A DNA stretch of 44,254 bases, from the UHGV virus genome UHGV-1376702; one strand, written 5' to 3'. The position numbers and the translations under genes were made by a program. How positions within the stretch are numbered: the first letter of the stretch is position 1; every line of letters starts with the position of its first letter. The notes below the pieces were generated by a model. That model did no database searches. It saw only the letters and a list, made by a program, of their open reading frames with translations, and had not been told where the DNA came from. Below are positions 1 through 24,706 of the stretch, one piece after another. Source of the stretch: a virus.

Positions 1-273
1 ATGGATGGGAAGGACGTAGACACCCAGAAACTCATCGGTGAGTCCGTGATGGGTATGAGTGCCATTGGCGGTGTATCCTTACTACAGGATATCTTCCTGG
101 GGGATTCTCCCCGTCACTCATTGGCATCTATGGGTTACGTCACAGGACTACTTGGGGCTGTGCAGGACCTGGCTACCGGTAATATGGATATCAAGACCTT
201 CACTAAGCAGGTGCCGTTAATCCAGGAATTCGCACCTACGCGAGCTATCATCAATAACTTCGGAGACGATTAA
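1..273 (+). CDS. C-terminal fragment of large internal virion (ejection) protein; 5'-truncated by window start
   Basis: ORF is open from base 1 and is in phase with the ORF that runs off the 3' end (40829..44254 is 3426 nt, a multiple of 3), as expected if the sequence is a circular permutation. Confidence 0.5.
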   Translation: MDGKDVDTQKLIGESVMGMSAIGGVSLLQDIFLGDSPRHSLASMGYVTGLLGAVQDLATGNMDIKTFTKQVPLIQEFAPTRAIINNFGDD

Positions 274-274
274 T

Positions 275-1231
275 ATGGCATACAGCTGGCAAGAACAAAT
301 CAAGCCAGCTGGTACCCAGGATATCCAGTGCGATATTGAATATTTGGACAAGTCCTATATTCATGTATACCTAGACGGTGTGGAAACCACTGGGTACACC
401 TGGACCAGCTCTACTAATATCAGGCTTAATTCGGCCTTAGCGGCAAGCACTACTGTGCTACTAATCCGTAAGACAGAGCGAGAGTATCTGTACATTGAGT
501 TCGCCAGTGGTTCTCCGTTCATTGAGGTAAACGTAGACTCCCAAAACACGCAGTTCCTGCACCTTGCGCAGGAACTAGTGGAGGGCCGGGCTATACCCGG
601 ATTCTATGGCGCTATCAGCATGAACGGGTACCGGATAACCAACTTAGCCAACCCAATCAGTGCCCAAGATGCCGCCACTAAGGCTTATGTAGATGCCGCC
701 GATGCCTTACTAGGACAGCGCATTGACGCAGAGCATTCGGGGTGGGTATCCGCTGTACAGGCCGAAGCCGTTACACGGAAGGCAGCAGATGACGCGCTGA
801 GTGCCCGTACCTCCGCCTTGGAGAACACCTTTATAAGCGGTGTAGAGACGGTAAGCTACCCGTGGAGCACGGTCCTGGCCACTGATACGGACGAAGTAAC
901 TCCAGGCTTAGCCTTCACTAAGGCTGTAGTAGAGGTTAACGGGGTTGGGCAGATTCGTGGCTACAGTTTCGATATTGTAGATAATACCATACTGTTTGCA
1001 GAGACCTTACCTGCGGGCACTATTGTAGCCGCTCGGCTGGGGGTTGATGTAACTGCGGGGGACGGTTTTGCTACGCAAGCATCCCTAGATTACTTAGCCG
1101 ACTCTTTGGGAGATTTGGCGTATCTGGACAAGGCTGCAGCTGTATCCAACGCAACCGGCACCGGGGATGTAGTGGCTAAATTTAACGCACTGCTGGCAGC
1201 GCTACGCACCAGTGGGGTGCTGTCTACATGA
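275..1231 (+). CDS. tail fibre / tailspike adaptor protein (T7 gp17 N-terminal-domain-like)
   Basis: 318 aa; RBS GGAGA upstream; N-terminal region and the segment GRAIPGFYGAISMNGYRITNLANPISAQDAATKAYVD resemble the tail-attachment domain of T7-type fibres; lies between internal virion protein and terminase as in T7-like genomes. Confidence 0.6.
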   Translation: MAYSWQEQIKPAGTQDIQCDIEYLDKSYIHVYLDGVETTGYTWTSSTNIRLNSALAASTTVLLIRKTEREYLYIEFASGSPFIEVNVDSQNTQFLHLAQELVEGRAIPGFYGAISMNGYRITNLANPISAQDAATKAYVDAADALLGQRIDAEHSGWVSAVQAEAVTRKAADDALSARTSALENTFISGVETVSYPWSTVLATDTDEVTPGLAFTKAVVEVNGVGQIRGYSFDIVDNTILFAETLPAGTIVAARLGVDVTAGDGFATQASLDYLADSLGDLAYLDKAAAVSNATGTGDVVAKFNALLAALRTSGVLST

Positions 1232-1243
1232 TAGGAGAAGAGC

Positions 1244-1546
1244 ATGGCAGGGGCAGCTAAACGCAGTCGCCTCTCGGAGCTGCACCGTATGTTCACCGAG
1301 GCCTTGATTGAAGAAATCAAGCAGTCTAAGGAAGATGAGGTGCCGCTCCCCGCAGCAGATAAATCGGTCATTGCTAAGTTCTTGAAGGATAACGACATCA
1401 CCGCGGACGCAGATTCCGAGGAGATGCAGGACCTTCGTGACGAATTCGATGACGAGCTAGCGGCGCGCAGAGAGGCGCGTAAGCAAGAGATTCTAAATAA
1501 AGTTGGTGGTTCAGACTCTGAGGACTTACTAGAAGGAATTGTCTAA
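1244..1546 (+). CDS. terminase small subunit (putative)
   Basis: 100 aa acidic protein with RBS AGGAGAAG; stop overlaps the start of the large terminase gene (TAATGG); position and size typical of T7-like small terminase. Confidence 0.5.
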   Translation: MAGAAKRSRLSELHRMFTEALIEEIKQSKEDEVPLPAADKSVIAKFLKDNDITADADSEEMQDLRDEFDDELAARREARKQEILNKVGGSDSEDLLEGIV

Positions 1547-3402
1547 TGGTATCGGTGAAGACTGCGCGAAGACTGCGCATGCTCAACCAGAAACTTACTG
1601 GTTATAGTGCGAATCCGCGCAGTATTCCCAAAGAGGAGCGCGAGGATATCGCGATGATGATGGCCGCGGCGCTAAGCGACTTCCGGGAATTCGCGTACAT
1701 CGGTATGCGGTTCCTGGGCTTTACGCTCACGGACATGCAGGCCGACATTGCAGAGTACATGCAGAAGGGCCCTAGGAAGCGAATGGTGGCCGCGCAGCGT
1801 GGTGAGGCTAAGTCTACACTAGCTGCGCTGTACGCCGTCTGGAGGCTCATACAGGACCAATCCTGCCGTATCCTGATTGTGTCTGGTGCAGAGAAGCAGG
1901 CGTCCGATGTAGCGAACTTAATCATTCGTATGCTGGAAACCTGGCCGCTGCTGTGCTACTTGAAGGCTGACTCTACTCGTGGGGACCGTACTTCATTCGA
2001 AGGTTATGATGTTCACTGCGACCTGAAACCTCTAGATAAGTCCGCCAGCGTAGCCTGTGTAGGTATCACTGCATCCCTGCAGGGGAAGCGTGCGGACCTG
2101 CTGATTCCGGATGATATCGAGACCACCAAGAATGGTTTAACGCAAACCCAGCGTGAGCAGCTGCTGATGATTTCTAAAGACTTCGCGGCTATCTGTACGC
2201 ACGGGGATACGCTGTACCTGGGTACACCACAGACCAAGGACAGTATCTATAAAACCCTGCCGGGACGTGGCTTCGAGGTCCGCGTGTGGCCCGGGCGCAT
2301 TCCGTCTGTTGAAATGGAAGAGCGATATGGAAGTACACTTGCTCCTTATATCCTGGAGCTTATTGAGCGCGGCTATAAACGCACCGGCTTCGGAGTCGAT
2401 GGGACGCTAGGCGAGAGCACGGACCCCGGGCGCTATGACGAGGATGCACTGATTGAGAAGGAGCTGGACTTTGGTCCGGAAGGCTTCCAGCTGCAGTACA
2501 TGCTCGACACCACCCTGTCCGACCAAATGCGTACGCGTATCAAGCTTTCGGATATGCTGGTTTACTCTGGCAGCCAGGAGTCCTCACCGGAGACGTTCTC
2601 CTACATCGCGGACCGCCGGTACCTGTACCAGCATGAGCATGAGGGGATTATGGGTCAGCAGATGTACTTCCCGGCATTCTACGGGGACATGCACCTGCCG
2701 TACCAGCATAAGGTACTGGTGGTGGACCCGGCTGGTTGTGGTGGGGACGAAGTGTCCTACGCTGCTGGAGGTGCTGCGAACTCGTACATTCACCTATTCT
2801 CCGTAGGCGGATTCCAAGGAGGTATCAGCGAAGAGAACATTGATAAACTGATTGACCTGTGTGTAGAGTTGGACATCCCGGATATGGTGGTGGAGAGCAA
2901 TATGGGGCACGGTACCGTGTCTATGCTTATCCTGAACCGATTACGTGAGCGGCGTCTCGCCGGTATCGGTGTAAGGGACCTGAATAACTCCACGCAGAAA
3001 GAGCGTCGTATCATCGACACAATCAGCCCAGTTACTCGTCGCCATCGCCTGATAGTGCATGAGCGTGCTATTCACGACGATATCAGTACCTGTATGGCAT
3101 ATTCCCGCGATAGGCGTTGGCTGTACTCTGCGTTCGCGCAGTTGTCCGGTATCACGTACGACCGCGGTAGCCTTGCGAAGGATGACCGGGCAGACGCAAT
3201 CGCCATGATGGTGGCTACGCTGAATGGGCATCTGGTGGAAGATGAGAAAGTGGTGGCTGAGCGTGAGTCTGAGAAGATGGCTCGGGCCTTCATTGAGAAC
3301 CCGCTGGATTGGGCACAGAGCAAAGTGTCTAAGGGCCTTCGGGGTGTAGCTGCTCGGCTGCATAACCGAGGCAGAGGTAAACAACATAGAGGAAGAAGAT
3401 AA
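1546..3402 (+). CDS. terminase large subunit
   Basis: 618 aa; N-terminal ATPase-like region (RMVAAQRGEAKST) and C-terminal nuclease-like region (VVDPAGCGGDEVSYAAGG); size and synteny match T7 gp19-type TerL. Confidence 0.85.
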   Translation: MVSVKTARRLRMLNQKLTGYSANPRSIPKEEREDIAMMMAAALSDFREFAYIGMRFLGFTLTDMQADIAEYMQKGPRKRMVAAQRGEAKSTLAALYAVWRLIQDQSCRILIVSGAEKQASDVANLIIRMLETWPLLCYLKADSTRGDRTSFEGYDVHCDLKPLDKSASVACVGITASLQGKRADLLIPDDIETTKNGLTQTQREQLLMISKDFAAICTHGDTLYLGTPQTKDSIYKTLPGRGFEVRVWPGRIPSVEMEERYGSTLAPYILELIERGYKRTGFGVDGTLGESTDPGRYDEDALIEKELDFGPEGFQLQYMLDTTLSDQMRTRIKLSDMLVYSGSQESSPETFSYIADRRYLYQHEHEGIMGQQMYFPAFYGDMHLPYQHKVLVVDPAGCGGDEVSYAAGGAANSYIHLFSVGGFQGGISEENIDKLIDLCVELDIPDMVVESNMGHGTVSMLILNRLRERRLAGIGVRDLNNSTQKERRIIDTISPVTRRHRLIVHERAIHDDISTCMAYSRDRRWLYSAFAQLSGITYDRGSLAKDDRADAIAMMVATLNGHLVEDEKVVAERESEKMARAFIENPLDWAQSKVSKGLRGVAARLHNRGRGKQHRGRR

Positions 3403-3776
3403 TGGCATCAATCATCGCAGCTAAAACTGCGGACGTACAGTACGCCATTGTAGGCACGTGCCAGAACCTGGAGAAGCAGGCGTCGCCGGACTACAACGTA
3501 GGCTTCGTAGGTACGACTGCCTTGACTAAGCTGAACGCGTTCTTCACGTACATGCAGTCCCAGGGCTATACGGCTACTCGTGCCGGTACAGCCTTCAAGG
3601 ATGACGGTACGCTGCAGGCGCGCCTGTTCAGCATGCTGTCACAGCTCTCTAAGACTGGCTACGTCGCCCTTACGGGTACAGGTATGCCGCTCGGTGAGGG
3701 CTCCGGTACAGCGTTTGATGATTCGTTCACTGCACTGCAGAGTGCGTTCGTAGCCGCCACTGACGCGGCAGAATAA
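3402..3776 (+). CDS. hypothetical protein
   Basis: 124-aa ORF, start overlaps terminase stop (ATAATGG); protein-like composition; no recognisable motif. Confidence 0.45.
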   Translation: MASIIAAKTADVQYAIVGTCQNLEKQASPDYNVGFVGTTALTKLNAFFTYMQSQGYTATRAGTAFKDDGTLQARLFSMLSQLSKTGYVALTGTGMPLGEGSGTAFDDSFTALQSAFVAATDAAE

Positions 3777-3787
3777 GGAGAGTACAC

Positions 3788-3970
3788 ATGGCAATTGCAA
3801 AAGCAACCCCAGCGCAACAGCAGGAGCTGCTGCGTCAGCTGAACATTCTCGGTAAGGACCTGTATGCTATCCTTACGCAGCCGCAGAACGTGGCCCAGAC
3901 TGGTGCTGCCTTCGATACCAAGATTGCTGCGCTTGAAGCCGCGGTGGCCGCAGTGAAGGCTGCTAGCTAA
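3788..3970 (+). CDS. hypothetical protein
   Basis: 60-aa ORF with RBS GGAGAG upstream; Ala/Gln-rich, helix-like; no transmembrane segment. Confidence 0.35.
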   Translation: MAIAKATPAQQQELLRQLNILGKDLYAILTQPQNVAQTGAAFDTKIAALEAAVAAVKAAS

Positions 3971-4374
3971 TGCGTAAACTGGTCGCTGGGTTGCTGCTCG
4001 CGGTTACTCTGACTGGTTGCTCGGCGACCTCTGCACTCACCGGATTAGTTGGTTCTAAGCCGGATGTATCTGCTCAGGTTGGTGCCGAGAACACCAAACA
4101 AACCGTTGGCTTGAATAACAAGGTGGACTCCAGCACCACCAACAAAACTGATGTACAGGATTCTAACGTAGGCACTTTGGACACGTCCAGTAAGAAGCAG
4201 GTGCAAACTATTAGCACCGGGACAATCCAGGCAGAACGCCTGCAGGTGGTTAACAATGATAGTTACAGTCTTATCCTCGCCGGATTAGCTGGGGCCAGTA
4301 TTCCTCTGGTCTTCCTAGTGGTCATTCTGGTGATTCGTAAGCTGTTCAGGAAGAAGGGGCAGCAGGATGATTAA
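3970..4374 (+). CDS. unimolecular spanin (u-spanin) candidate
   Basis: 134 aa; N-terminal lipoprotein signal with lipobox LTGC; Ser/Thr/Gln-rich middle; C-terminal TMD (LILAGLAGASIPLVFLVVILVI) then RKLFRKK. This is the architecture of T1 gp11-type u-spanins; no Rz/Rz1 pair is visible. Confidence 0.6.
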   Translation: MRKLVAGLLLAVTLTGCSATSALTGLVGSKPDVSAQVGAENTKQTVGLNNKVDSSTTNKTDVQDSNVGTLDTSSKKQVQTISTGTIQAERLQVVNNDSYSLILAGLAGASIPLVFLVVILVIRKLFRKKGQQDD

Positions 4375-4618
4375 GGTGGGAGACATGGTTGGAGCAGACC
4401 TCGCTACCCGGGCAGGTGCAGCAGTTACCGGCGCTACGGTATCAGGAGGTTGGTTGGCAGAGTTAATGAGCTGGAACTGGAGCACTATCAGCTTCATCAC
4501 TGCGACTGTGTGCGCAGTGCTAACCCTGGCGTGGAATGCGTATTACAAACGACGTACATTCAAGCTCCTAGAGGAGCAGGCACGTAAGGGGACTATTAAA
4601 TATGAGTTTAAGGACTAA
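4367..4618 (+). CDS. pinholin / holin candidate
   Basis: 83 aa (alternative start ATG 4385 with RBS AAGGTGGGAG); weakly hydrophobic Gly/Ala-rich segment (AGAAVTGATVSGGWLA) followed by a strongly hydrophobic TMD (WSTISFITATVCAVLTLAW) and a basic C-terminus; immediately 5' of a SAR endolysin. Confidence 0.5.
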   Translation: MIKVGDMVGADLATRAGAAVTGATVSGGWLAELMSWNWSTISFITATVCAVLTLAWNAYYKRRTFKLLEEQARKGTIKYEFKD

Positions 4619-5210
4619 GGTTATTGCGGCCCTCACGGGGGCCACTATGCTTGGCGGTGCCATTACCGGGGTGGTTCAGCACAACGAGGGGTTGAGCCTT
4701 ACCGCCTATAAGGATAGTGCCGGTGTCCCTACAATCTGCTACGGAGAGACAAAGGGCGTCAAGATGGGTCAGAGAGCCACGCTGAGCGATTGTCAGAAGC
4801 AACTGATAGAATCAGCAGGGGCACATGCAAAGGCTCTTGACGGGCTTCCTGTGCAGCTCTCTGACGTAGCTCTGGTTGGGTCTGTAGACTTCATTTATAA
4901 CGTAGGCGTAGCTGGCTTCAACGGCAGTGCTGTGAAGCGGCATCTCAAAAGCCTGAATTACGCAGCAGCTGGAAAGGCTGTACTGGACTGGCGCTATATT
5001 AGCAAGTACCAGCAGAAATCCCCGGGCATCGGTTGGGTGTACAAGGGCAGCAACCGCTGGACCTTCGACTGCTCTCAGTATATTAACGGGCAGCGCAATA
5101 AAGTGTGCTGGGGCCTATGGGAGCGCAGACAGTGGCAGAGCAAGGCCATTGGGAATCAGTATAAGAATGTAAATGCTGCGGTGGCAGCTCTTACTAAGAC
5201 CGGAGGATAA
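4602..5210 (+). CDS. SAR endolysin (T4-lysozyme-like muramidase, GH24-type)
   Basis: 202 aa; N-terminal signal-arrest-release-like weakly hydrophobic stretch (VIAALTGATMLGGAITGVV); catalytic motif E-x8-D-x5-T (NEGLSLTAYKDSAGVPT) typical of T4L/lambda R-type lysozymes. Confidence 0.8.
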   Translation: MSLRTKVIAALTGATMLGGAITGVVQHNEGLSLTAYKDSAGVPTICYGETKGVKMGQRATLSDCQKQLIESAGAHAKALDGLPVQLSDVALVGSVDFIYNVGVAGFNGSAVKRHLKSLNYAAAGKAVLDWRYISKYQQKSPGIGWVYKGSNRWTFDCSQYINGQRNKVCWGLWERRQWQSKAIGNQYKNVNAAVAALTKTGG

Positions 5211-7166
5211 ATGGCGTTAATTAGATTAGTAGCTCCAGAGCGGGTATTCTCCGACTTGGCGAGCATGGTAGCATATCCAAACTTTCAGGTACAGGACAAG
5301 ATTATCCTGCTGGGCAGCGCCGGTGGGGACTTCACCTTTACTACTGCTGCGTCGGTAGTGGATAACGGAACTGTGTTTGCTGTACCCGGTGGGTATCTGC
5401 TTCGTAAATTCGCGGGCCCGGCATACAGCTCCTGGTTCAGCAATTGGGCGGGCATAGTCACGTTCATGAGTGCACCTAATAGGCACCTGGTTGTGGACAC
5501 AGTCTTGCAGGCCACGAGTGTGCTCAACATCAAAAGCAACTCTACGCTAGAGTTTACTGACACCGGAAGAATCCTGCCGGATGCTGCGGTTGCACGTCAG
5601 GTGCTTAACATTATCGGCTCGGCACCATCGGCGTTCGTGCCGTTAGCAGCGGATGCCGCAGCGGGCAGCAAAGTCATTACGGTGGCTGCCGGGGCTTTGT
5701 CTGCGGTAAAAGGTACGTACTTGTATCTTCGCTCTAACAAGCTGTGCGACGGTGGGCCTAACACGTACGGTGTAAAGATTTCCCAGATTAGGAAAGTGGT
5801 GGGAGTCAGCACCTCCGGTGGCGTCACCAGTATTCGGCTGGATAAAGCGCTGCACTATAACTACTACCTGTCTGATGCCGCGGAAGTAGGCGTCCCTACA
5901 ATGGTAGAGAACGTAACCCTAGTATCTCCGTACATCAACGAGTTCGGCTACGACGACTTGAACCGGTTCTTTACTATCGGTATCTCTGCCAACTTTGCCG
6001 CGGACTTGCACATCCAGGACGGGGTTATTATTGGCAACAAACGCCCCGGGGCTTCTGATATAGAAGGGCGTAGTGCTATCAAGTTCAATAACTGCGTAGA
6101 TAGTACCGTTAAGGGTACGTACTTCTACAACATCGGATGGTATGGGGTAGAGGTGCTCGGCTGCTCAGAGGACACGGAAGTACACGATATCCACGCCATG
6201 GACGTACGCCACGCAATCTCTCTGAACTGGCAGAGCACTGCAGACGGGGACAAGTGGGGAGAGCCTATCGAGTTCTTAGGCGTTAACTGCGAAGCCTACA
6301 ACACAACCCAAGCTGGGTTTGATACTCATGACATTGGTAAGCGTGTGAAGTTCGTTCGATGCGTTTCGTACGACAGTGCTGACGATGGGTTCCAAGCGCG
6401 CACTAACGGGGTAGAGTACTTGAACTGTCGAGTTTACCGTGCAGCTATGGACGGGTTCGCCTCCAACACCGGTGTAGCCTTCCCTATCTATAGGGAGTGC
6501 CTAGCTTATGACAACGTACGCTCTGGCTTTAACTGCTCGTACGGCGGTGGCTACGTTTATGACTGCGAGGCTCACGGTAGCCAGAATGGTGTGCGAATCA
6601 ACGGGGGCCGTGTTAAGGGTGGTCGGTACACCCGCAACTCCAGCTCTCACATCTTCGTTACTAAGGACGTAGCTGAGACAGCGCAGACACCCCTGGAGAT
6701 TGATGGCGTGAGCATGCGCTACGACGGTACCGGGAGAGCTGTGTACTTCCACGGGACTATGGGCATTGACCCTACCCTGGTATCTATGTCCAATAACGAC
6801 ATGACCGGTCACGGCTTGTTCTGGGCATTGCTGAGCGGCTACACCGTTCAACCTACGCCTCCGCGCATGTCCATGAACTTACTGGATGACACAGGTATCC
6901 GTGGAGTGGCAACTCTGGTGGCTGGTGAGGCTACAGTCAACGCCCGTGTACGCGGAAACTTTGGCAGCGTAGCTAACTCCTTCAAGTGGGTGTCTGAGGT
7001 TAAGTTGACGCGGTTGACCTTTCCCTCTAGTGCTGGGGCCTTGACGGTTACTGGCGTAGCTCAGAACCAGGATGTGCCTACACCTAATCCGGACCTAAAC
7101 AGCTTCGTGATTAGGAGCAGTAACGCAGCGGACGTATCCCAGGTAGCCTGGGAGGTGTATCTCTAA
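5211..7166 (+). CDS. tailspike / probable polysaccharide depolymerase (beta-helix)
   Basis: 651 aa; start directly follows the endolysin stop; Gly/Asn/Val/Thr-rich sequence with repetitive short beta-strand pattern (e.g. NCVDSTVKGTYFYNIGWYGVEV) typical of right-handed beta-helix tailspikes; last structural-type gene before the non-coding terminus. Confidence 0.6.
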   Translation: MALIRLVAPERVFSDLASMVAYPNFQVQDKIILLGSAGGDFTFTTAASVVDNGTVFAVPGGYLLRKFAGPAYSSWFSNWAGIVTFMSAPNRHLVVDTVLQATSVLNIKSNSTLEFTDTGRILPDAAVARQVLNIIGSAPSAFVPLAADAAAGSKVITVAAGALSAVKGTYLYLRSNKLCDGGPNTYGVKISQIRKVVGVSTSGGVTSIRLDKALHYNYYLSDAAEVGVPTMVENVTLVSPYINEFGYDDLNRFFTIGISANFAADLHIQDGVIIGNKRPGASDIEGRSAIKFNNCVDSTVKGTYFYNIGWYGVEVLGCSEDTEVHDIHAMDVRHAISLNWQSTADGDKWGEPIEFLGVNCEAYNTTQAGFDTHDIGKRVKFVRCVSYDSADDGFQARTNGVEYLNCRVYRAAMDGFASNTGVAFPIYRECLAYDNVRSGFNCSYGGGYVYDCEAHGSQNGVRINGGRVKGGRYTRNSSSHIFVTKDVAETAQTPLEIDGVSMRYDGTGRAVYFHGTMGIDPTLVSMSNNDMTGHGLFWALLSGYTVQPTPPRMSMNLLDDTGIRGVATLVAGEATVNARVRGNFGSVANSFKWVSEVKLTRLTFPSSAGALTVTGVAQNQDVPTPNPDLNSFVIRSSNAADVSQVAWEVYL

Positions 7167-7261
7167 GTAGATCCCTGGGGTATCTCTACGGTATCCCGGG
7201 GCACTGCTGGGGTGCACGTCTATACCTGGACATGAAATTTATTAGACTTTAAAATGAGGAT

Positions 7262-7723
7262 ATGTCTATGAACATCAAATATGACACAACATCCCCTAGC
7301 TGCTTGGTGTGGCTCAAGGGTAGGCGCGCCGGTGCTCCAGCGGGTACCCGCAACACTCGTGGCTACTGGGTGGTACAGGTATCTGGTAGAAAGATACAGG
7401 CACACCGCCTCATCTGGGAACTACACAACGGGCCTATTCCAGACGGATATGTGGTGGACCACATCAACCAAAACCCCAGTGACAACAGATTAGAGAACCT
7501 GCGCTTAGCTACGGTTAGCGAAAACAACTGTAACGCACGCAGGTCTAAGCGGGAACATCCTAGGGGTGTATACTACACTGGCACCTGCTGGCGCGGGGAG
7601 TTCTGGAAGGACGGTAAGCGTTACATGAAGAAGCACAGCTCCTACGAAGTTATCTGCAAGTGGGTACTAGAGAAACGTCAAGAGCAACACAAGGCCTTCA
7701 CCCCGGGGCATGTGTATACCTGA
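7262..7723 (+). CDS. HNH homing endonuclease
   Basis: 153 aa; HRLIWELHNGPIPDGYVVDHINQNPSDNRLENLRLAT matches the HNH_3-type motif of free-standing phage homing endonucleases; RBS AATGAGGA. Confidence 0.8.
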   Translation: MSMNIKYDTTSPSCLVWLKGRRAGAPAGTRNTRGYWVVQVSGRKIQAHRLIWELHNGPIPDGYVVDHINQNPSDNRLENLRLATVSENNCNARRSKREHPRGVYYTGTCWRGEFWKDGKRYMKKHSSYEVICKWVLEKRQEQHKAFTPGHVYT

Positions 7724-7810
7724 AACCAAAAATTATTATACTCACCCTTGGGCCTCCCTCACCCTCAACGCGCCCAATTGCCCCCATAGGGGGTGCCTAG
7801 CGTCAATTTA

Positions 7811-7821
7811 GGGGGGGGGGG
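7811..7821. repeat. G11 homopolymer tract
   Basis: Eleven consecutive G in the non-coding region. Confidence 0.9.
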
Positions 7822-7928
7822 CACTGGTGGGGCCTGCTAGTGCGCACTAGAGCGCCTCAGCGGGCCTGTGCTGCGCTCTAAGGCTATTGCCAGTGCTACC
7901 CTATGGCTATCACTGTGCGTTCACTAGG

Positions 7929-7972
7929 GCGCTTCCTGTGCGCTTCCTGTGCGCTTCCTGTGCGCTTCCTGT
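7929..7972. repeat. tandem direct repeat, 4 x 11 bp (GCGCTTCCTGT)
   Basis: Four perfect head-to-tail copies read directly from the sequence. Confidence 0.9.
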
Positions 7973-8240
7973 GGGCCATAGGGGCGTGCTCTGCCTTGCT
8001 TATTTTGTGCGCCTCAGTGGGCCTGCCTAGTGCCTGTCTAGTGCCTGCGCAGTGGGGCCATAGGGTATGCCTAGTGCTATCCCTAGTGTGCACTAGGCTA
8101 TCCACTGGCTATCCTTAGTGCTTTACATTGTGCTAATTATGTGCTACGCTGCGCGCTCCCCACTAGGGCGCACATCCACCACACCGCACTATCCAGCGCT
8201 ATCCCTTTGCTCTTACTTTCATTCGAAAGCTATTATGAAA

Positions 8241-8260
8241 TGATGTTACAGGAGTAGGAG
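8241..8260 (+). promoter_or_regulatory. conserved motif copy 1 (ATGTTACAGGAGTAGGAG); candidate phage-RNAP promoter
   Basis: One of three identical copies of a 17-19-nt sequence (others at about 29667 and 41572); this copy is intergenic near the putative genome left end. Confidence 0.35.
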
Positions 8261-8527
8261 GGTTTTAGGGCACTATATACACTACTTAATACTAGTCCTT
8301 ACTAGTCCCTACTAGGCACTCACTAGTATGGCCCTGTGCCTACGTAGTAGGCTGCCATAACTACATAGTCACCGCATCACTACGTTCCTTCACTTACGTT
8401 ACGTCACTACGTTCTGCTTTATGTAGTATTAGATAGTATTGGCTAGACGTGGCTAGTATTGGCTACAGCCAGTGTCAGCACAGTGCTATCCCTAGTGGCT
8501 ATCCCTATAATATATAAGGAGTTATAC

Positions 8528-9082
8528 ATGTTACCATCTAGTCGGGCTACGGCTAAAGCCACTGGTAGTACATACTACTACACAGGGAAGCACTGTAAGT
8601 ACCAGCACACGGCAAAGCGCCTCACCAGTTCAGGGGAGTGCTCCGAGTGCTTTAAGATTAGGAGTACCAGCCCAGCTACTAAGGAGCGTATGCGGGAGTA
8701 CCATAAGGTTTATCAGGTACGTAAGGCAGAGGCCTTGAGAGAGTACCGTAAGACACGCCGACCTAAGCACATTATGACAGAGGAGCAATTACAGCGTAAG
8801 GTTCGCCACAATGCGCGATACCGTGCTGCGCGTACTCAATCCGTACCCTCATGGTATGGCGAGTGGGATGAGTTTGTTATGTTGGAGGCTATCGCTTTAG
8901 CAGCCGAGAGGGCGGAGTGTACTGGCATAGCGTGGCATATTGACCATATGCTACCGCTAAAGGCTAAAGAGGTGTGCGGCTTACACTGTGCGGGGAACAT
9001 TCAGGTGATACCCGCAACGCTTAATACACATAAGTGTAACAGGCTGCTATTCACGGAGCCGTTGGAGTGGCTAAAGGCATAA
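8528..9082 (+). CDS. HNH endonuclease with N-terminal zinc ribbon
   Basis: Start refined to ATG 8528 (RBS AAGGAG, TATAAT just upstream); Cys-x-x-Cys pairs near the N-terminus; C-terminal HNH motif AWHIDHMLPLKAKEVCGLHCAGNIQVIPATLNTHKCN. Confidence 0.7.
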   Translation: MLPSSRATAKATGSTYYYTGKHCKYQHTAKRLTSSGECSECFKIRSTSPATKERMREYHKVYQVRKAEALREYRKTRRPKHIMTEEQLQRKVRHNARYRAARTQSVPSWYGEWDEFVMLEAIALAAERAECTGIAWHIDHMLPLKAKEVCGLHCAGNIQVIPATLNTHKCNRLLFTEPLEWLKA

Positions 9083-21424: not shown

Positions 21425-22397
21425 GTTAAACACAATAAAGCTATTCACCAAAGAGCAACACATAGATATCTTGAGCAAGCACAGCTCTAACGTGGATGCT
21501 GCTGCCGCCTATAATAAGCTGGCGGGACTGGACGAGCCAGTGGTGTATCGACAGATGGTGAAGTACTGGCGCAGCATATTCCTAGACCACGCTGGGAGCA
21601 AGGGTAAGGCAATATCACACATGAAGGAGGCACTAAAGCTCATACAGCCCAGTCCCACTGATGACATCGGCAAAACCTTCGTGCCGGAAGTGTGCCACCG
21701 TATTCTCGTAGTTGGGGATTTGCATGCCCCCTATACGCACGTAGATGCTATGGCCTTCTTAGAATCTGTGCGAGACGCCTACTGTCCGGACATGGTTGTA
21801 CAGGTAGGCGACGAGACGGACGGCCACGCTATATCATTCCACGAAAGTAACCCGAACCTGGATAGCGCCGGGGTGGAGCTGGAGAAAGCTAAGCTCGTAC
21901 TGGAGGAGCTACATGAACTGTTCCCGAACCTATTGGTTTGCGATTCCAATCACGGCAGTCTGGTTTACCGCAGGGCGAAAGCTCACGGGCTACCAGTGCA
22001 ATTCATCAAGAAGTACCGAGATATACTTTTCCCTGAACATGGTGCCCCGGCGTGGTCTTGGGCTGACGCGTGGGTACTCAATACCCCACTTGGCCCGGTT
22101 AGATTCCAGCATCAAGTGTCGGGTGACTTCATGCTCAACGCTAGCCACGAAAGAACCAGCCTTGTCCTTGGTCACGAACATGGTCGCTTTGAGGTGCAAT
22201 ATGCAGCTAGCTCAACAGCTTTGTACTTTGGTGCGTATGCTGGGTGTCTGATTGACCGTAAGAGCATGGCCTTTGCTTACGGCAGACTCACCCGCAAGAA
22301 ACCAATCCTGGGTGTGATGGTAATCACCGAGGGTTGCCCGCAGTTAATTCCGATGCTGCTTGACGACGATGGTCGTTGGGTTGGTCGTACTAAATAA
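21417..22397 (+). CDS. calcineurin-like metallophosphoesterase
   Basis: 326 aa; GDLH ... GDETD ... CDSNHG motifs in canonical order (GDxH, GDxxD, GNH). Confidence 0.6.
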   Translation: MPKLNTIKLFTKEQHIDILSKHSSNVDAAAAYNKLAGLDEPVVYRQMVKYWRSIFLDHAGSKGKAISHMKEALKLIQPSPTDDIGKTFVPEVCHRILVVGDLHAPYTHVDAMAFLESVRDAYCPDMVVQVGDETDGHAISFHESNPNLDSAGVELEKAKLVLEELHELFPNLLVCDSNHGSLVYRRAKAHGLPVQFIKKYRDILFPEHGAPAWSWADAWVLNTPLGPVRFQHQVSGDFMLNASHERTSLVLGHEHGRFEVQYAASSTALYFGAYAGCLIDRKSMAFAYGRLTRKKPILGVMVITEGCPQLIPMLLDDDGRWVGRTK

Positions 22398-22407
22398 CAC
22401 AGAGGTG

Positions 22408-22578
22408 ATGATGAAAATGGGAATCTGTTCTGTACTGGGCCTTATCTTTGTAACCTTGAAACTGACTGGCGTTATCGCCTGGTCCTGGTTGTGGGTGCTG
22501 CTCCCGTTCTGGGGGCCTATGGCACTCGGCGTAATCCTAGTGTTCTTGGCGGTGGCCCTCAAAGCTGCCTCCCGCTAA
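22408..22578 (+). CDS. small membrane protein (two predicted TMDs)
   Basis: Start refined to ATG 22408/22411 (RBS AGAGG); about 56 aa; hydrophobic segments ICSVLGLIFVTL and MALGVILVFLAVAL. Confidence 0.4.
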   Translation: MMKMGICSVLGLIFVTLKLTGVIAWSWLWVLLPFWGPMALGVILVFLAVALKAASR

Positions 22579-24005: not shown

Positions 24006-24379
24006 TGGACAAAGTACTAGACGCATACAAGAAACTGGTTCTGGCTGTAGGTTACGTGAACTGTAGCGCCGTTCAAGGTTTCGACAATGGTGACCAGCTC
24101 GGCGCTGTGTACGATGCTCTGGACAAGCTGGCGGCCCTGTACGGCATGGACCTGGAGTTGGCTGCTACCGCCTTCAAGGAGCACAATGACCTGGCGGCAC
24201 ATGCCGATAAGTTACGGGGTGATGACCTAGTGCTTATCCGCATTGTGGGTACCCTAAGCATCGGGCTGGCGGAGATTGGTTCCTGCATCTACGACGTAGA
24301 CCAGAGCCTGCGTACCACGGAAGTAATCGGGGACATGCTTGGCACCGTGTTGGTGCTATCTGAACTGGAGGGTATATAA
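24005..24379 (+). CDS. hypothetical protein
   Basis: 124-aa ORF; start overlaps previous stop. Confidence 0.45.
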   Translation: MDKVLDAYKKLVLAVGYVNCSAVQGFDNGDQLGAVYDALDKLAALYGMDLELAATAFKEHNDLAAHADKLRGDDLVLIRIVGTLSIGLAEIGSCIYDVDQSLRTTEVIGDMLGTVLVLSELEGI

Positions 24380-24540
24380 TGCGTAAATTTATATCCTACA
24401 TAATTTCAGTCCCAGCACTGGTACTACTTGCAATCAGCTTGATGCTAATGGCGCTGGCGCTCAGTGTAGCCGGAGGCTCTAAGGGCGTGGCTATGCTGGG
24501 CCGTGCAATCCATGCTTTTACTGACCACTTAAAGGTGTAG
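24379..24540 (+). CDS. small membrane protein (about 53 aa)
   Basis: Not in the ORF track (under 60 aa); ATG after GGAGGG; single hydrophobic helix ISVPALVLLAISLMLMALALSVA. Confidence 0.3.
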   Translation: MRKFISYIISVPALVLLAISLMLMALALSVAGGSKGVAMLGRAIHAFTDHLKV

Positions 24541-24543
24541 AGA

Positions 24544-24706
24544 ATGCGTAACTTCTTTGCAAAATCATTTTACTTCCTGTTAGTAGCCCCGCTAGTGCCT
24601 GTAGCTATCCTGTGCTGGGCATTTGAGAAGGTAGAAAACAGTCAGGCGCTGACCGCCTGGGAATCCTGGGCGCGTAAGTTGACCAAGAAGGTTACGGGGG
24701 TCTGAT
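24544..24706 (+). CDS. small membrane protein (about 53 aa)
   Basis: Not in the ORF track; hydrophobic segment FYFLLVAPLVPVAILCWAF; stop overlaps the exonuclease start. Confidence 0.3.

Follow-up and report, generated by a model that had tools for sequence, protein, structure and literature searches.

The 44,254-nt window, which is the whole stretch of UHGV-1376702 analysed here, carries three overlapping ORFs on the + strand, each with an ATG start: 3970-4374 (134 aa), 4367-4618 (83 aa), and 4602-5210 (202 aa). They encode a putative spanin followed by a holin and an endolysin, in that order, so that the placement of the spanin ahead of the other two genes, as described in a first-pass annotation of this DNA, is confirmed. 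The start of the holin gene overlaps the spanin stop codon (ATGATTAA), with 8 nt shared, and the holin and endolysin genes share 17 nt. It appears that the three genes are transcribed together and that these overlaps couple them; a promoter and terminator scan of positions 1-9000 gave nothing above shuffle expectation inside the cassette.

The region matches 249 phage records, nearly all of them Klebsiella Drulisvirus (top match 97.9%), and the identical 134-aa spanin sequence is present on 416 contigs. The cassette is therefore not a product of chance, and by these sequence matches the window is identified as the genome of a Klebsiella Drulisvirus, i.e., a KP34-like podovirus. NCBIfam models gave only matches far below threshold (spanin2_3, 22 bits where 80 is the cut-off; BgtA, 42 where it is 315). 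All functional assignments made below for the cassette proteins are based on homology, and no bench experiment on a KP34-type lysis protein came up in our literature search. Phage KBNP1315 (PMC4640515) was considered as such a test and set aside, as it is an SP6-like phage with an unrelated endolysin.

The holin gene

The gene at 4367-4618 (+) encodes an 83-aa protein of the P21 holin S (S21 pinholin) family and is the orthologue of KP34 gp55, with 98.8% identity. Its match to Pfam PF04971 (P21 holin S) is marginal, with a score of 26.6 bits where the cut-off is 26 (+0.6 bits), and it matches PHROG 20 (holin) with an E value of 5e-17. PF04971 is also precomputed for nearly all of its close homologues. 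The orthologue in PP16 scores 28.4 bits, and that in Bucovirus (Buco) scores 31.8 bits, the latter covering profile positions 5-59 of 64 and both transmembrane domains (TMDs).

Two segments can be distinguished in the protein. The first (4412-4468, + strand, residues ~16-34) is weakly hydrophobic and rich in Gly, Ala, Ser, and Thr, and from its composition and alignment we propose it as a SAR-like TMD1; the second (4484-4546, + strand, residues ~40-60) is a clearly hydrophobic TMD by hydropathy and is followed by a charged C-terminal tail. The KP34 literature describes this holin differently. The record of KP34 gp55 is annotated with one transmembrane domain (PHOBIUS, TMHMM), and one TMD is likewise given for KP34-type holins on the basis of TMHMM, Phobius, or TOPCONS (PMC4411677; PMC10194101). 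The protein could accordingly be a holin other than an S21-type pinholin, with a single TMD in an N-out, C-in topology resembling class III and a Gly/Ala-rich N-terminus that is never embedded in the membrane, or it could form large holes. Within residues 1-32, the mean Kyte-Doolittle value stays below 1.0 for every stretch of 19 residues, R15 and E32 enclose only ~16 uncharged residues, and an hhalign comparison of the holin alignment with EssD, an S21-like holin, covered TMD2 alone, at 46% probability.

The same predictors, however, miss the TMD1 of experimentally studied S21-class holins, which is equally weak on the same scales. The first segment of the window's holin has a Hessa-scale sum of 5.7 with 59% small residues, compared to 6.5 and 65% for TMD1 of EssD, and its hydrophobicity is as weak as that of TMD1 in both EssD and T1 gp13. 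BLASTP, which together with Pfam is more informative here than hhalign, aligned the N-terminal segment with TMD1 of EssD. In addition, the Buco orthologue that matches both TMDs of PF04971 has an uncharged N-terminus of 30 residues (AAYGSSASAGVMGW, compared to the S21-like AYGTSAGSAGYW), and residues G17, G27, and G28 are invariant among homologues. We consider the single-TMD or large-hole alternative unlikely, and, in place of the "one-TMD class III holin" given in the KP34 literature, the protein is probably an S21-type pinholin with two segments. This agrees with the two-segment, pinholin-like protein proposed in the first-pass annotation, the term pinholin being assigned from homology and composition.

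The family of the holin and its pairing with a putative SAR endolysin suggest that it would form small (about 2 nm), depolarising holes, with no release of soluble endolysin. A SAR endolysin does not in itself prove a pinholin, because SAR endolysins can pair with large-hole holins. Phage N4 reportedly has a SAR endolysin-holin system, going by the title of a preprint.

The holin gene also contains an in-frame ATG at codon 7, located behind a Shine-Dalgarno-like sequence (AAGGTGGGAG). The ATG or GTG at this codon follows the Shine-Dalgarno-like AAGGTRGGRG by five bases, and the synonymous positions of that sequence vary between purines only. An ATG or GTG occupies codon 7 in 41 of the 52 distinct relatives; the other 11 have GTA, ACG, ACA, or TTA there, and KP34, with ACG, is among them. 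M7 is not conserved in the protein, and a strict S21-like M1/M7 dual start was rejected on that ground; after the codon tally, it was kept only as a lead of low probability. The MKSM dual-start motif of S21 is not reproduced as such either. It is doubtful, but conceivable, that most Drulisvirus holin genes yield two products, one from the conserved ATG over the spanin stop and one from the ATG or GTG at codon 7, which would form a pinholin/antiholin pair in some members, including this phage, and be absent in others such as KP34. If so, lysis timing would be polymorphic within the genus.

The endolysin and its N-terminal segment

The gene at 4602-5210 (+) encodes a 202-aa GH24 lysozyme with a SAR-like N-terminal anchor and is the orthologue of KP34 gp56 (93.1% identity). 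The protein matches Pfam PF00959 with 75.8 bits, and its top PDB match is full-length R21 (3HDE; E 6e-10), in an alignment that begins at residue 2 and includes the SAR segment. The catalytic triad E29-x8-D38-x5-T44 (4686-4733, + strand) can be read from the sequence with exactly the spacing given in the first-pass annotation, and E29, D38, and T44 are invariant in an alignment of six endolysins including T1 gp12 and RrrD.

The SAR-like segment comprises residues 7-25 (VIAALTGATMLGGAITGVV; 4620-4676, + strand), placed after R4 and K6 and identified by its composition and the R21 alignment. It consists of 65% Gly, Ala, Ser, and Thr and has a mean Kyte-Doolittle value of 1.5-1.8. The segment contains no Cys, which argues for refolding of the R21 type rather than the disulfide route of P1 Lyz; the first Cys of the protein is C46, and Asp rather than Cys occupies the middle position of the triad.

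A signal peptide has been predicted for the orthologous endolysin of JKP2 (PMC10194101), and the small residues I21-T22-G23 could in principle be used by signal peptidase I, as would be needed if the N-terminus were a cleavable Sec signal peptide of a secreted enzyme (fOg44 Lys44 type) instead of an uncleaved SAR domain. The N-terminus, however, has no A-x-A site and aligns residue for residue with the SAR domain of R21, which stays with the protein and, on refolding, is incorporated into the active enzyme. Moreover, T1 gp12 and the orthologues of Buco and PP16 conserve the segment, and the catalytic Glu29 lies only four residues past it. Cleavage is thus very unlikely, and we retain the SAR label that had been proposed together with the E-x8-D-x5-T triad; the triad is observed, and the label is an assignment by homology and composition. 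A single-sequence AlphaFold2 model of the endolysin had a mean pLDDT of 33.6 and was unusable.

The spanin and the search for Rz/Rz1

The first gene of the cassette (3970-4374, + strand) encodes a 134-aa protein orthologous to KP34 gp54 (99.3% identity). It matches PHROG 1804, a lysis/spanin family, with an E value of 6e-52, and is 42% identical to T1 gp11 across 125 of its 134 aa; it thereby falls within the T1 gp11 family of unimolecular spanins as delimited by Kongari et al. (2018), whose limit is 40% or more identity to a family member across 40% or more of the length. The same study placed the spanins of KP34 and NTUH-K2044-K1-1 in this family (Table 5; PMC6139136).

The N-terminus consists of MRK, a hydrophobic stretch, and the lipobox L14-T15-G16-C17 (4009-4020, + strand), in which Cys17 is the predicted site of lipid attachment. 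Pfam LPAM_1 scores 20.3 bits here against a cut-off of 20. The +2 residue is Ser18 and not Asp, which fits outer-membrane sorting, and a [LV][TSAG]GC lipobox followed by Ser occurs in 79 of 79 related viral loci. At the other end of the protein lies a predicted inner-membrane TMD (residues ~100-123; 4267-4338, + strand), with mean Kyte-Doolittle values of up to 2.66 and a basic tail, RKLFRKK, directly after it; this TMD is kept in all 79 relatives. Cys17 is the only Cys of the protein, which consequently has no periplasmic cysteine, as has been noted for all u-spanins (PMC6139136). The lipobox and C-terminal TMD noted in the first-pass annotation are thus borne out, and so is its u-spanin assignment, with homology supporting membership of the T1 gp11 family. 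Within the u-spanin family, experimental testing covers the prototype T1 gp11 alone, which complements a lambda RzRz1 defect, and spanins of the T1 gp11 family sit in pinholin/SAR-endolysin cassettes, except in J8-65 and Limezero (PMC6139136). The database homologues retrieved for the spanin were all at least 98% identical, an alignment too shallow for a useful model. A periplasmic domain rich in beta-strands, a mark of the T1 gp11 family, would be expected for this protein.

The 134-aa protein is labelled "outer membrane lipoprotein SlyB" or only "hypothetical protein" in some sources, which would leave room for a lipoprotein of superinfection exclusion or receptor blocking, of the T5 Llp or Cor type, with no part in lysis. 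This is highly improbable given the identity to T1 gp11, which has the complementing activity cited above, and the C-terminal TMD, which exclusion lipoproteins do not have; in addition, the gene always adjoins the endolysin gene, in either the spanin-first or the T1-like order, and no other outer-membrane disruptor was found in the genome.

It is equally hard to credit that a two-component spanin is hidden, whether embedded in a different frame or at some other place in the genome. Embedded Rz1 genes are easy to miss, and the positional neighbour in PP16 is annotated as a "putative Rz-like lysis protein". We therefore scanned the whole 44-kb window with strict and relaxed lipobox patterns, in six frames and from every ATG, GTG, and TTG start. 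No second lipobox ORF was found; the ORF at 3970 carries the sole credible lipoprotein signal, and the other relaxed matches are out-of-frame fragments without a credible signal. With no further lipobox ORF in any of the window's six frames, there is no Rz1, in keeping with the earlier statement that an Rz/Rz1 pair is lacking. Nor was an i-spanin-like protein found among the window's other proteins with hydrophobic segments. Two candidates were rejected: a 207-aa ORF (8459-9082), whose N-terminus is hydrophobic, matches endonuclease VII, and the PP16 neighbour, orf53, lacks a TMD and shows no similarity to the upstream gene of the window.

Probable lysis route and comparison with known cassettes

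With the ORFs, motifs, homologies, gene order, and absence of Rz1 as observed, we interpret the locus as the cassette of late lysis genes of a Klebsiella Drulisvirus, which very likely uses the pinholin/SAR-endolysin/unimolecular-spanin route worked out in phages 21 and T1. For this cassette, we infer export, timing, hole size, and membrane fusion as follows. The 202-aa lysozyme would be exported by Sec and tethered to the inner membrane via its weakly hydrophobic N-terminal segment, and, with Glu29 only four residues from the membrane, the tethered enzyme would be kept inactive. Meanwhile, the 83-aa S21-family holin would build up in the inner membrane until its small holes, formed at a fixed time, collapse the membrane potential. 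Depolarisation would let the SAR segment exit the bilayer, upon which the endolysin may refold like R21 and degrade the cell wall. The 134-aa spanin would bridge the envelope, with the lipid on Cys17 in the outer membrane and the C-terminal TMD in the inner membrane, and, once freed from the peptidoglycan mesh, would fuse the two membranes. For the KP34 clade as a whole, this mechanism is drawn from homology to T1, phage 21, and phiKMV.

The cassette itself is already known; it has been in print since 2015 and is present in hundreds of sequenced phages. According to Eriksson et al. (2015), a hallmark of the KP34-like genus is the order u-spanin, (pin)holin, SAR endolysin (PMC4411677, section 3.7), an identical arrangement is a hallmark of Phimunavirus (PMC6115819, section 3.9), and the reading of the cassette in two other studies agrees (PMC4559738; PMC10194101). 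The first-pass annotation had called this a non-canonical lysis cassette: the arrangement it described stands, but "non-canonical" overstates the case for a published hallmark (PMC4411677; PMC6115819). As such, the cassette matters little beyond its correct annotation. It does recur, with hardly any change, in the genomes of hundreds of phages that are under study as candidates for phage therapy. GenBank labels for the cassette genes are inconsistent and include "hypothetical protein", "Rz-like spanin", and "SlyB", as well as a truncated holin in Buco.

The closest described counterpart is KP34 gp54-gp55-gp56, in which the three genes, their order, their start/stop overlaps, and the junction sequences are all the same. 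The flanks are also shared: a large terminase gene and two small genes of unknown function precede the cassette, and a tailspike gene follows it. Compared to KP34, the spanin and the holin have one substitution each (I119V and M7T), and the endolysin has 14. By contrast, the downstream tailspike is unrelated to that of KP34 (19% identity) and is of the K1-lyase type of NTUH-K2044-K1-1.

The holin belongs to the same Pfam family as S21 of phage 21 and EssD of the E. coli prophage DLP12, with which it probably shares the layout of two segments and a basic tail, at only ~28% identity. R21 and RrrD (DLP12) are the best solved-structure matches to the endolysin; the E-x8-D-x5-T triad is shared and the SAR segment aligns, although the window's enzyme has a shorter linker between this segment and the catalytic Glu. 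Both phage 21 and DLP12 carry a two-component Rz/Rz1 downstream, whereas the window has a u-spanin. Similarly, phiKMV is, like the phage in the window, a podovirus of the Autographiviridae, with a pinholin and a SAR endolysin, KMV45 (Briers et al. 2011, cited in PMC4411677), as predicted for the window, but it has a two-component spanin (Rz, Rz1) after the endolysin; the similarity between the phiKMV and KP34 cassettes is ~30% at 22% coverage (PMC4411677).

The T1 cassette provides the counterpart for all three proteins. Besides the spanin (gp11, 42% over 125 aa), homology extends to the endolysin (gp12, 28%, including the N-terminal segment) and to the C-terminal half of the holin (gp13, 34% over 35 aa). 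The window's endolysin differs from that of T1 by an insertion of ~27 aa carrying a Cys pair, and the T1 holin falls below the PF04971 cut-off, which the window's holin exceeds. The gene order also differs, being holin-endolysin-spanin in T1 and Webervirus and spanin-holin-endolysin here. Nevertheless, with T1 described as encoding a class II pinholin, a SAR endolysin, and a spanin of the unimolecular type (PMC4559738), the logic of the window's cassette is the same.

A predicted unimolecular spanin and the search for Rz/Rz1

The 134-aa product of 3970-4374 (+ strand) begins with MRK and a hydrophobic stretch leading into an LTGC lipobox, in which Cys17, the sole cysteine of the protein, is followed by Ser; the Pfam lipoprotein attachment model scores barely over its cut-off. 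Residues ~100-123 form the strongest hydrophobic segment of the region, with a basic tail after them. Among related viral loci, a canonical lipobox followed by Ser is present in 79/79 and, at the C-terminus, a transmembrane domain (TMD) in 79/79. Both features noted in the first-pass annotation hold. The protein falls within PHROG 1804 (lysis, spanin; E 6e-52) and shares 42% identity across 125 residues with T1 gp11, the prototype of unimolecular spanins (u-spanins), which complements a lambda RzRz1 defect (PMC6139136). This passes the threshold for u-spanin families of 40% identity over 40% of length applied in that study, whose Table 5 already assigns KP34, F19 and NTUH-K2044-K1-1 to the T1 family, and which reports that periplasmic Cys is absent from u-spanins. 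The family match and the likeness to T1 gp11 thus support the predicted u-spanin. The exact protein is recorded on 416 contigs.

Lipoprotein signals were sought from each ATG, GTG and TTG in six frames of the entire window, in a strict and then a loose pass. The ORF at 3970 alone qualified; no second lipoprotein-signal ORF was found, including any embedded Rz1-like ORF with its own lipobox. Likewise, no i-spanin-like protein was found among the remaining + strand ORFs that contain hydrophobic segments; these encode small function-unnamed proteins and one endonuclease VII homologue. The proposed lack of an Rz/Rz1 pair is thus upheld. Outside the cassette, four small + strand ORFs (7903-8118, 22360-22578, 24379-24540 and 24544-24705; 53-72 aa) have strong hydrophobic segments, two TMDs in one case; they match unknown-function PHROGs or nothing, and for none of the four was a match to a holin family found.

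Endolysin and holin

The 202-aa product of 4602-5210 (+ strand) matches Pfam Phage_lysozyme (75.8 bits), and its top solved-structure matches are full-length R21 of phage 21 (3HDE) and RrrD of DLP12 (4ZPU). The alignment with R21 begins at residue 2, so that the N-terminal segment is aligned with the R21 signal-anchor-release (SAR) domain. Residues 7-25, preceded by R4/K6, consist of 65% small residues and are free of Cys, pointing to refolding of the R21 type over the disulfide route of P1 Lyz. E29, D38 and T44 are invariant among six aligned endolysins, with the E-x8-D-x5-T spacing described previously, and alignment, composition and triad agree with the predicted SAR endolysin. In addition, Autographiviridae-clade endolysins contain a ~27-residue insertion with C157 and C169 relative to T1 and R21, which could be a disulfide-stapled hairpin. 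It corresponds to approximately 5019-5099 (residues ~140-166), C157 being inside and C169 just after; it is common to Shigella phage Buco and Pectobacterium phage PP16 and absent from T1 gp12 and R21/RrrD.

The 83-aa holin encoded at 4367-4618 (+ strand) was read in the first-pass annotation as a two-segment, pinholin-like protein, whereas one TMD is given by predictors in the KP34 gp55 record and reported in two papers (PMC4411677; PMC10194101). Those calls come from TMHMM, Phobius or TOPCONS, and such predictors miss a weak SAR-type TMD1, which would account for them. The evidence better supports a two-segment protein of the S21 family. The holin scores 0.6 bits above the cut-off of PF04971 (P21 holin S family), and nearly all its homologues in the database carry a precomputed match to this model; the Buco and PP16 orthologues score 31.8 and 28.4 bits, the former spanning profile positions 5-59 of 64, i.e., both TMDs. 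BLASTP aligns both segments and the basic tail to EssD, the S21-like holin of DLP12. The second segment (residues 40-60) is clearly hydrophobic. The first (residues ~16-34) is weak, at 5.7 on a Hessa-type scale with 59% Gly/Ala/Ser/Thr, compared with 6.5 and 65% for EssD TMD1 and 5.0 and 76% for T1 gp13.

The GenBank holin of Buco (57 aa, start at position 2923 of its locus) looks truncated; the full ORF (2851-3096 of that locus, 81 aa), whose ATG overlaps the spanin stop codon, has a first segment that is uncharged and S21-like, and it matches both PF04971 TMDs. A 73-aa metagenome homologue is holin-like for ~28 residues and then follows an alternative frame of 4450-4587, most likely through a frameshift or sequencing error on its contig.

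A possible second holin start

Codon 7 of the holin (4385-4387) is an in-frame ATG, five bases past a Shine-Dalgarno-like AAGGTGGGAG (4373-4382). Of 52 distinct relatives, 28 have ATG at this codon and 13 have GTG (41/52), and synonymous-position variation in codons 4 and 5 is confined to purines. Codon 7, behind this purine-preserved sequence, is thus a weak lead as a candidate second start. Its ATG could also be neutral variation; the codon is a non-start in 11 of the relatives, and in KP34, the Drulisvirus type phage, it is ACG.

Locus organization and known cassettes

From the large terminase (1546-3402) through two small genes without a named function (3402-3776 and 3788-3970) and the cassette to the tailspike (5211-7166), all genes in the ORF list are on the + strand and densely packed, with start and stop codons overlapping or abutting throughout. 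The spanin-to-holin junction is ATGATTAA, there is a 17-nt overlap between the holin and endolysin genes, and the tailspike ATG is directly 3' of the endolysin TAA. The cassette coordinates, taken from the ORF list and the sequence, agree exactly with those in the first-pass annotation and bear out that the spanin precedes the holin and endolysin. A consensus scan of the cassette found no promoter or terminator signals above shuffle expectation.

The two small genes between terminase and spanin encode conserved proteins without TMDs (PHROG 7128 and 7375, unknown-function families), and GenBank names for their counterparts vary (e.g., "exonuclease", "putative structural protein"). A PP16 positional counterpart labelled "Rz-like lysis protein" was rejected as a spanin part, having no TMD and no similarity to the window gene. 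In length the window corresponds to an entire Drulisvirus genome, yet it begins in the late region and contains no direct repeats of at least 40 bp (and no tRNA genes) in 1-44254; it thus looks like an assembly that is circularly permuted and whose terminal repeat has collapsed.

By megablast, 249 phage records match 3700-5300 (top identity 97.9%), 233 of them named Klebsiella phages, and annotated relatives belong to Autographiviridae, Slopekvirinae, genus Drulisvirus. Compared with KP34, the cassette junctions are identical, and the spanin (99.3%, one substitution), holin (98.8%, M7T) and endolysin (93.1%) are closely similar, whereas the tailspikes share only 19% identity, amounting to a clean host-range module swap at the endolysin stop codon. 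The window's tailspike, with K1-lyase N, Rider and C domains, is of the NTUH-K2044-K1-1 type. Just past it, near the canonical genome end, lies an HNH endonuclease ORF (7262-7723); only 8/250 matching phage records span 80% or more of 7167-8600, so this gene is accessory and probably mobile.

The order spanin-holin-endolysin occurs in 67 of the 80 viral contigs retrieved with the spanin alignment, four have a 230-260 nt gap between the spanin and an endolysin that follows it, and seven have the endolysin ahead of the spanin; two gave no order (one incomplete, one without a detected endolysin or holin). Bucovirus and Kotilavirus PP16 share the spanin-first order, and T1 and Webervirus have holin-endolysin-spanin. 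Since T1 counterparts are detectably related to all three proteins, the podovirus cassette looks like a reordered T1-type cassette.

The observation of this cassette is confirmed and its interpretation supported, but the cassette is well documented and very common, making this a re-discovery, to which we add two small refinements, evidence for a two-segment S21-family holin and the weak lead on a second holin start. Our literature search found no wet-lab studies of KP34-type lysis proteins, and the proposed mechanism in the KP34 clade rests on homology. Eriksson et al. (2015; PMC4411677, section 3.7) described the cassettes of KP34, SU503, SU552A, NTUH-K2044-K1-1 and F19, with an 83-residue holin taken as a pinholin, an endolysin that carries a SAR domain at its N-terminus, and a u-spanin, and used the spanin-holin-endolysin order as a genus criterion in contrast to phiKMV. 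The same cassette is present in Phimunavirus (Buttimer et al., 2018; PMC6115819), and pinholin/SAR-endolysin cassettes house T1 gp11-family spanins, with the exception of J8-65 and Limezero (PMC6139136).
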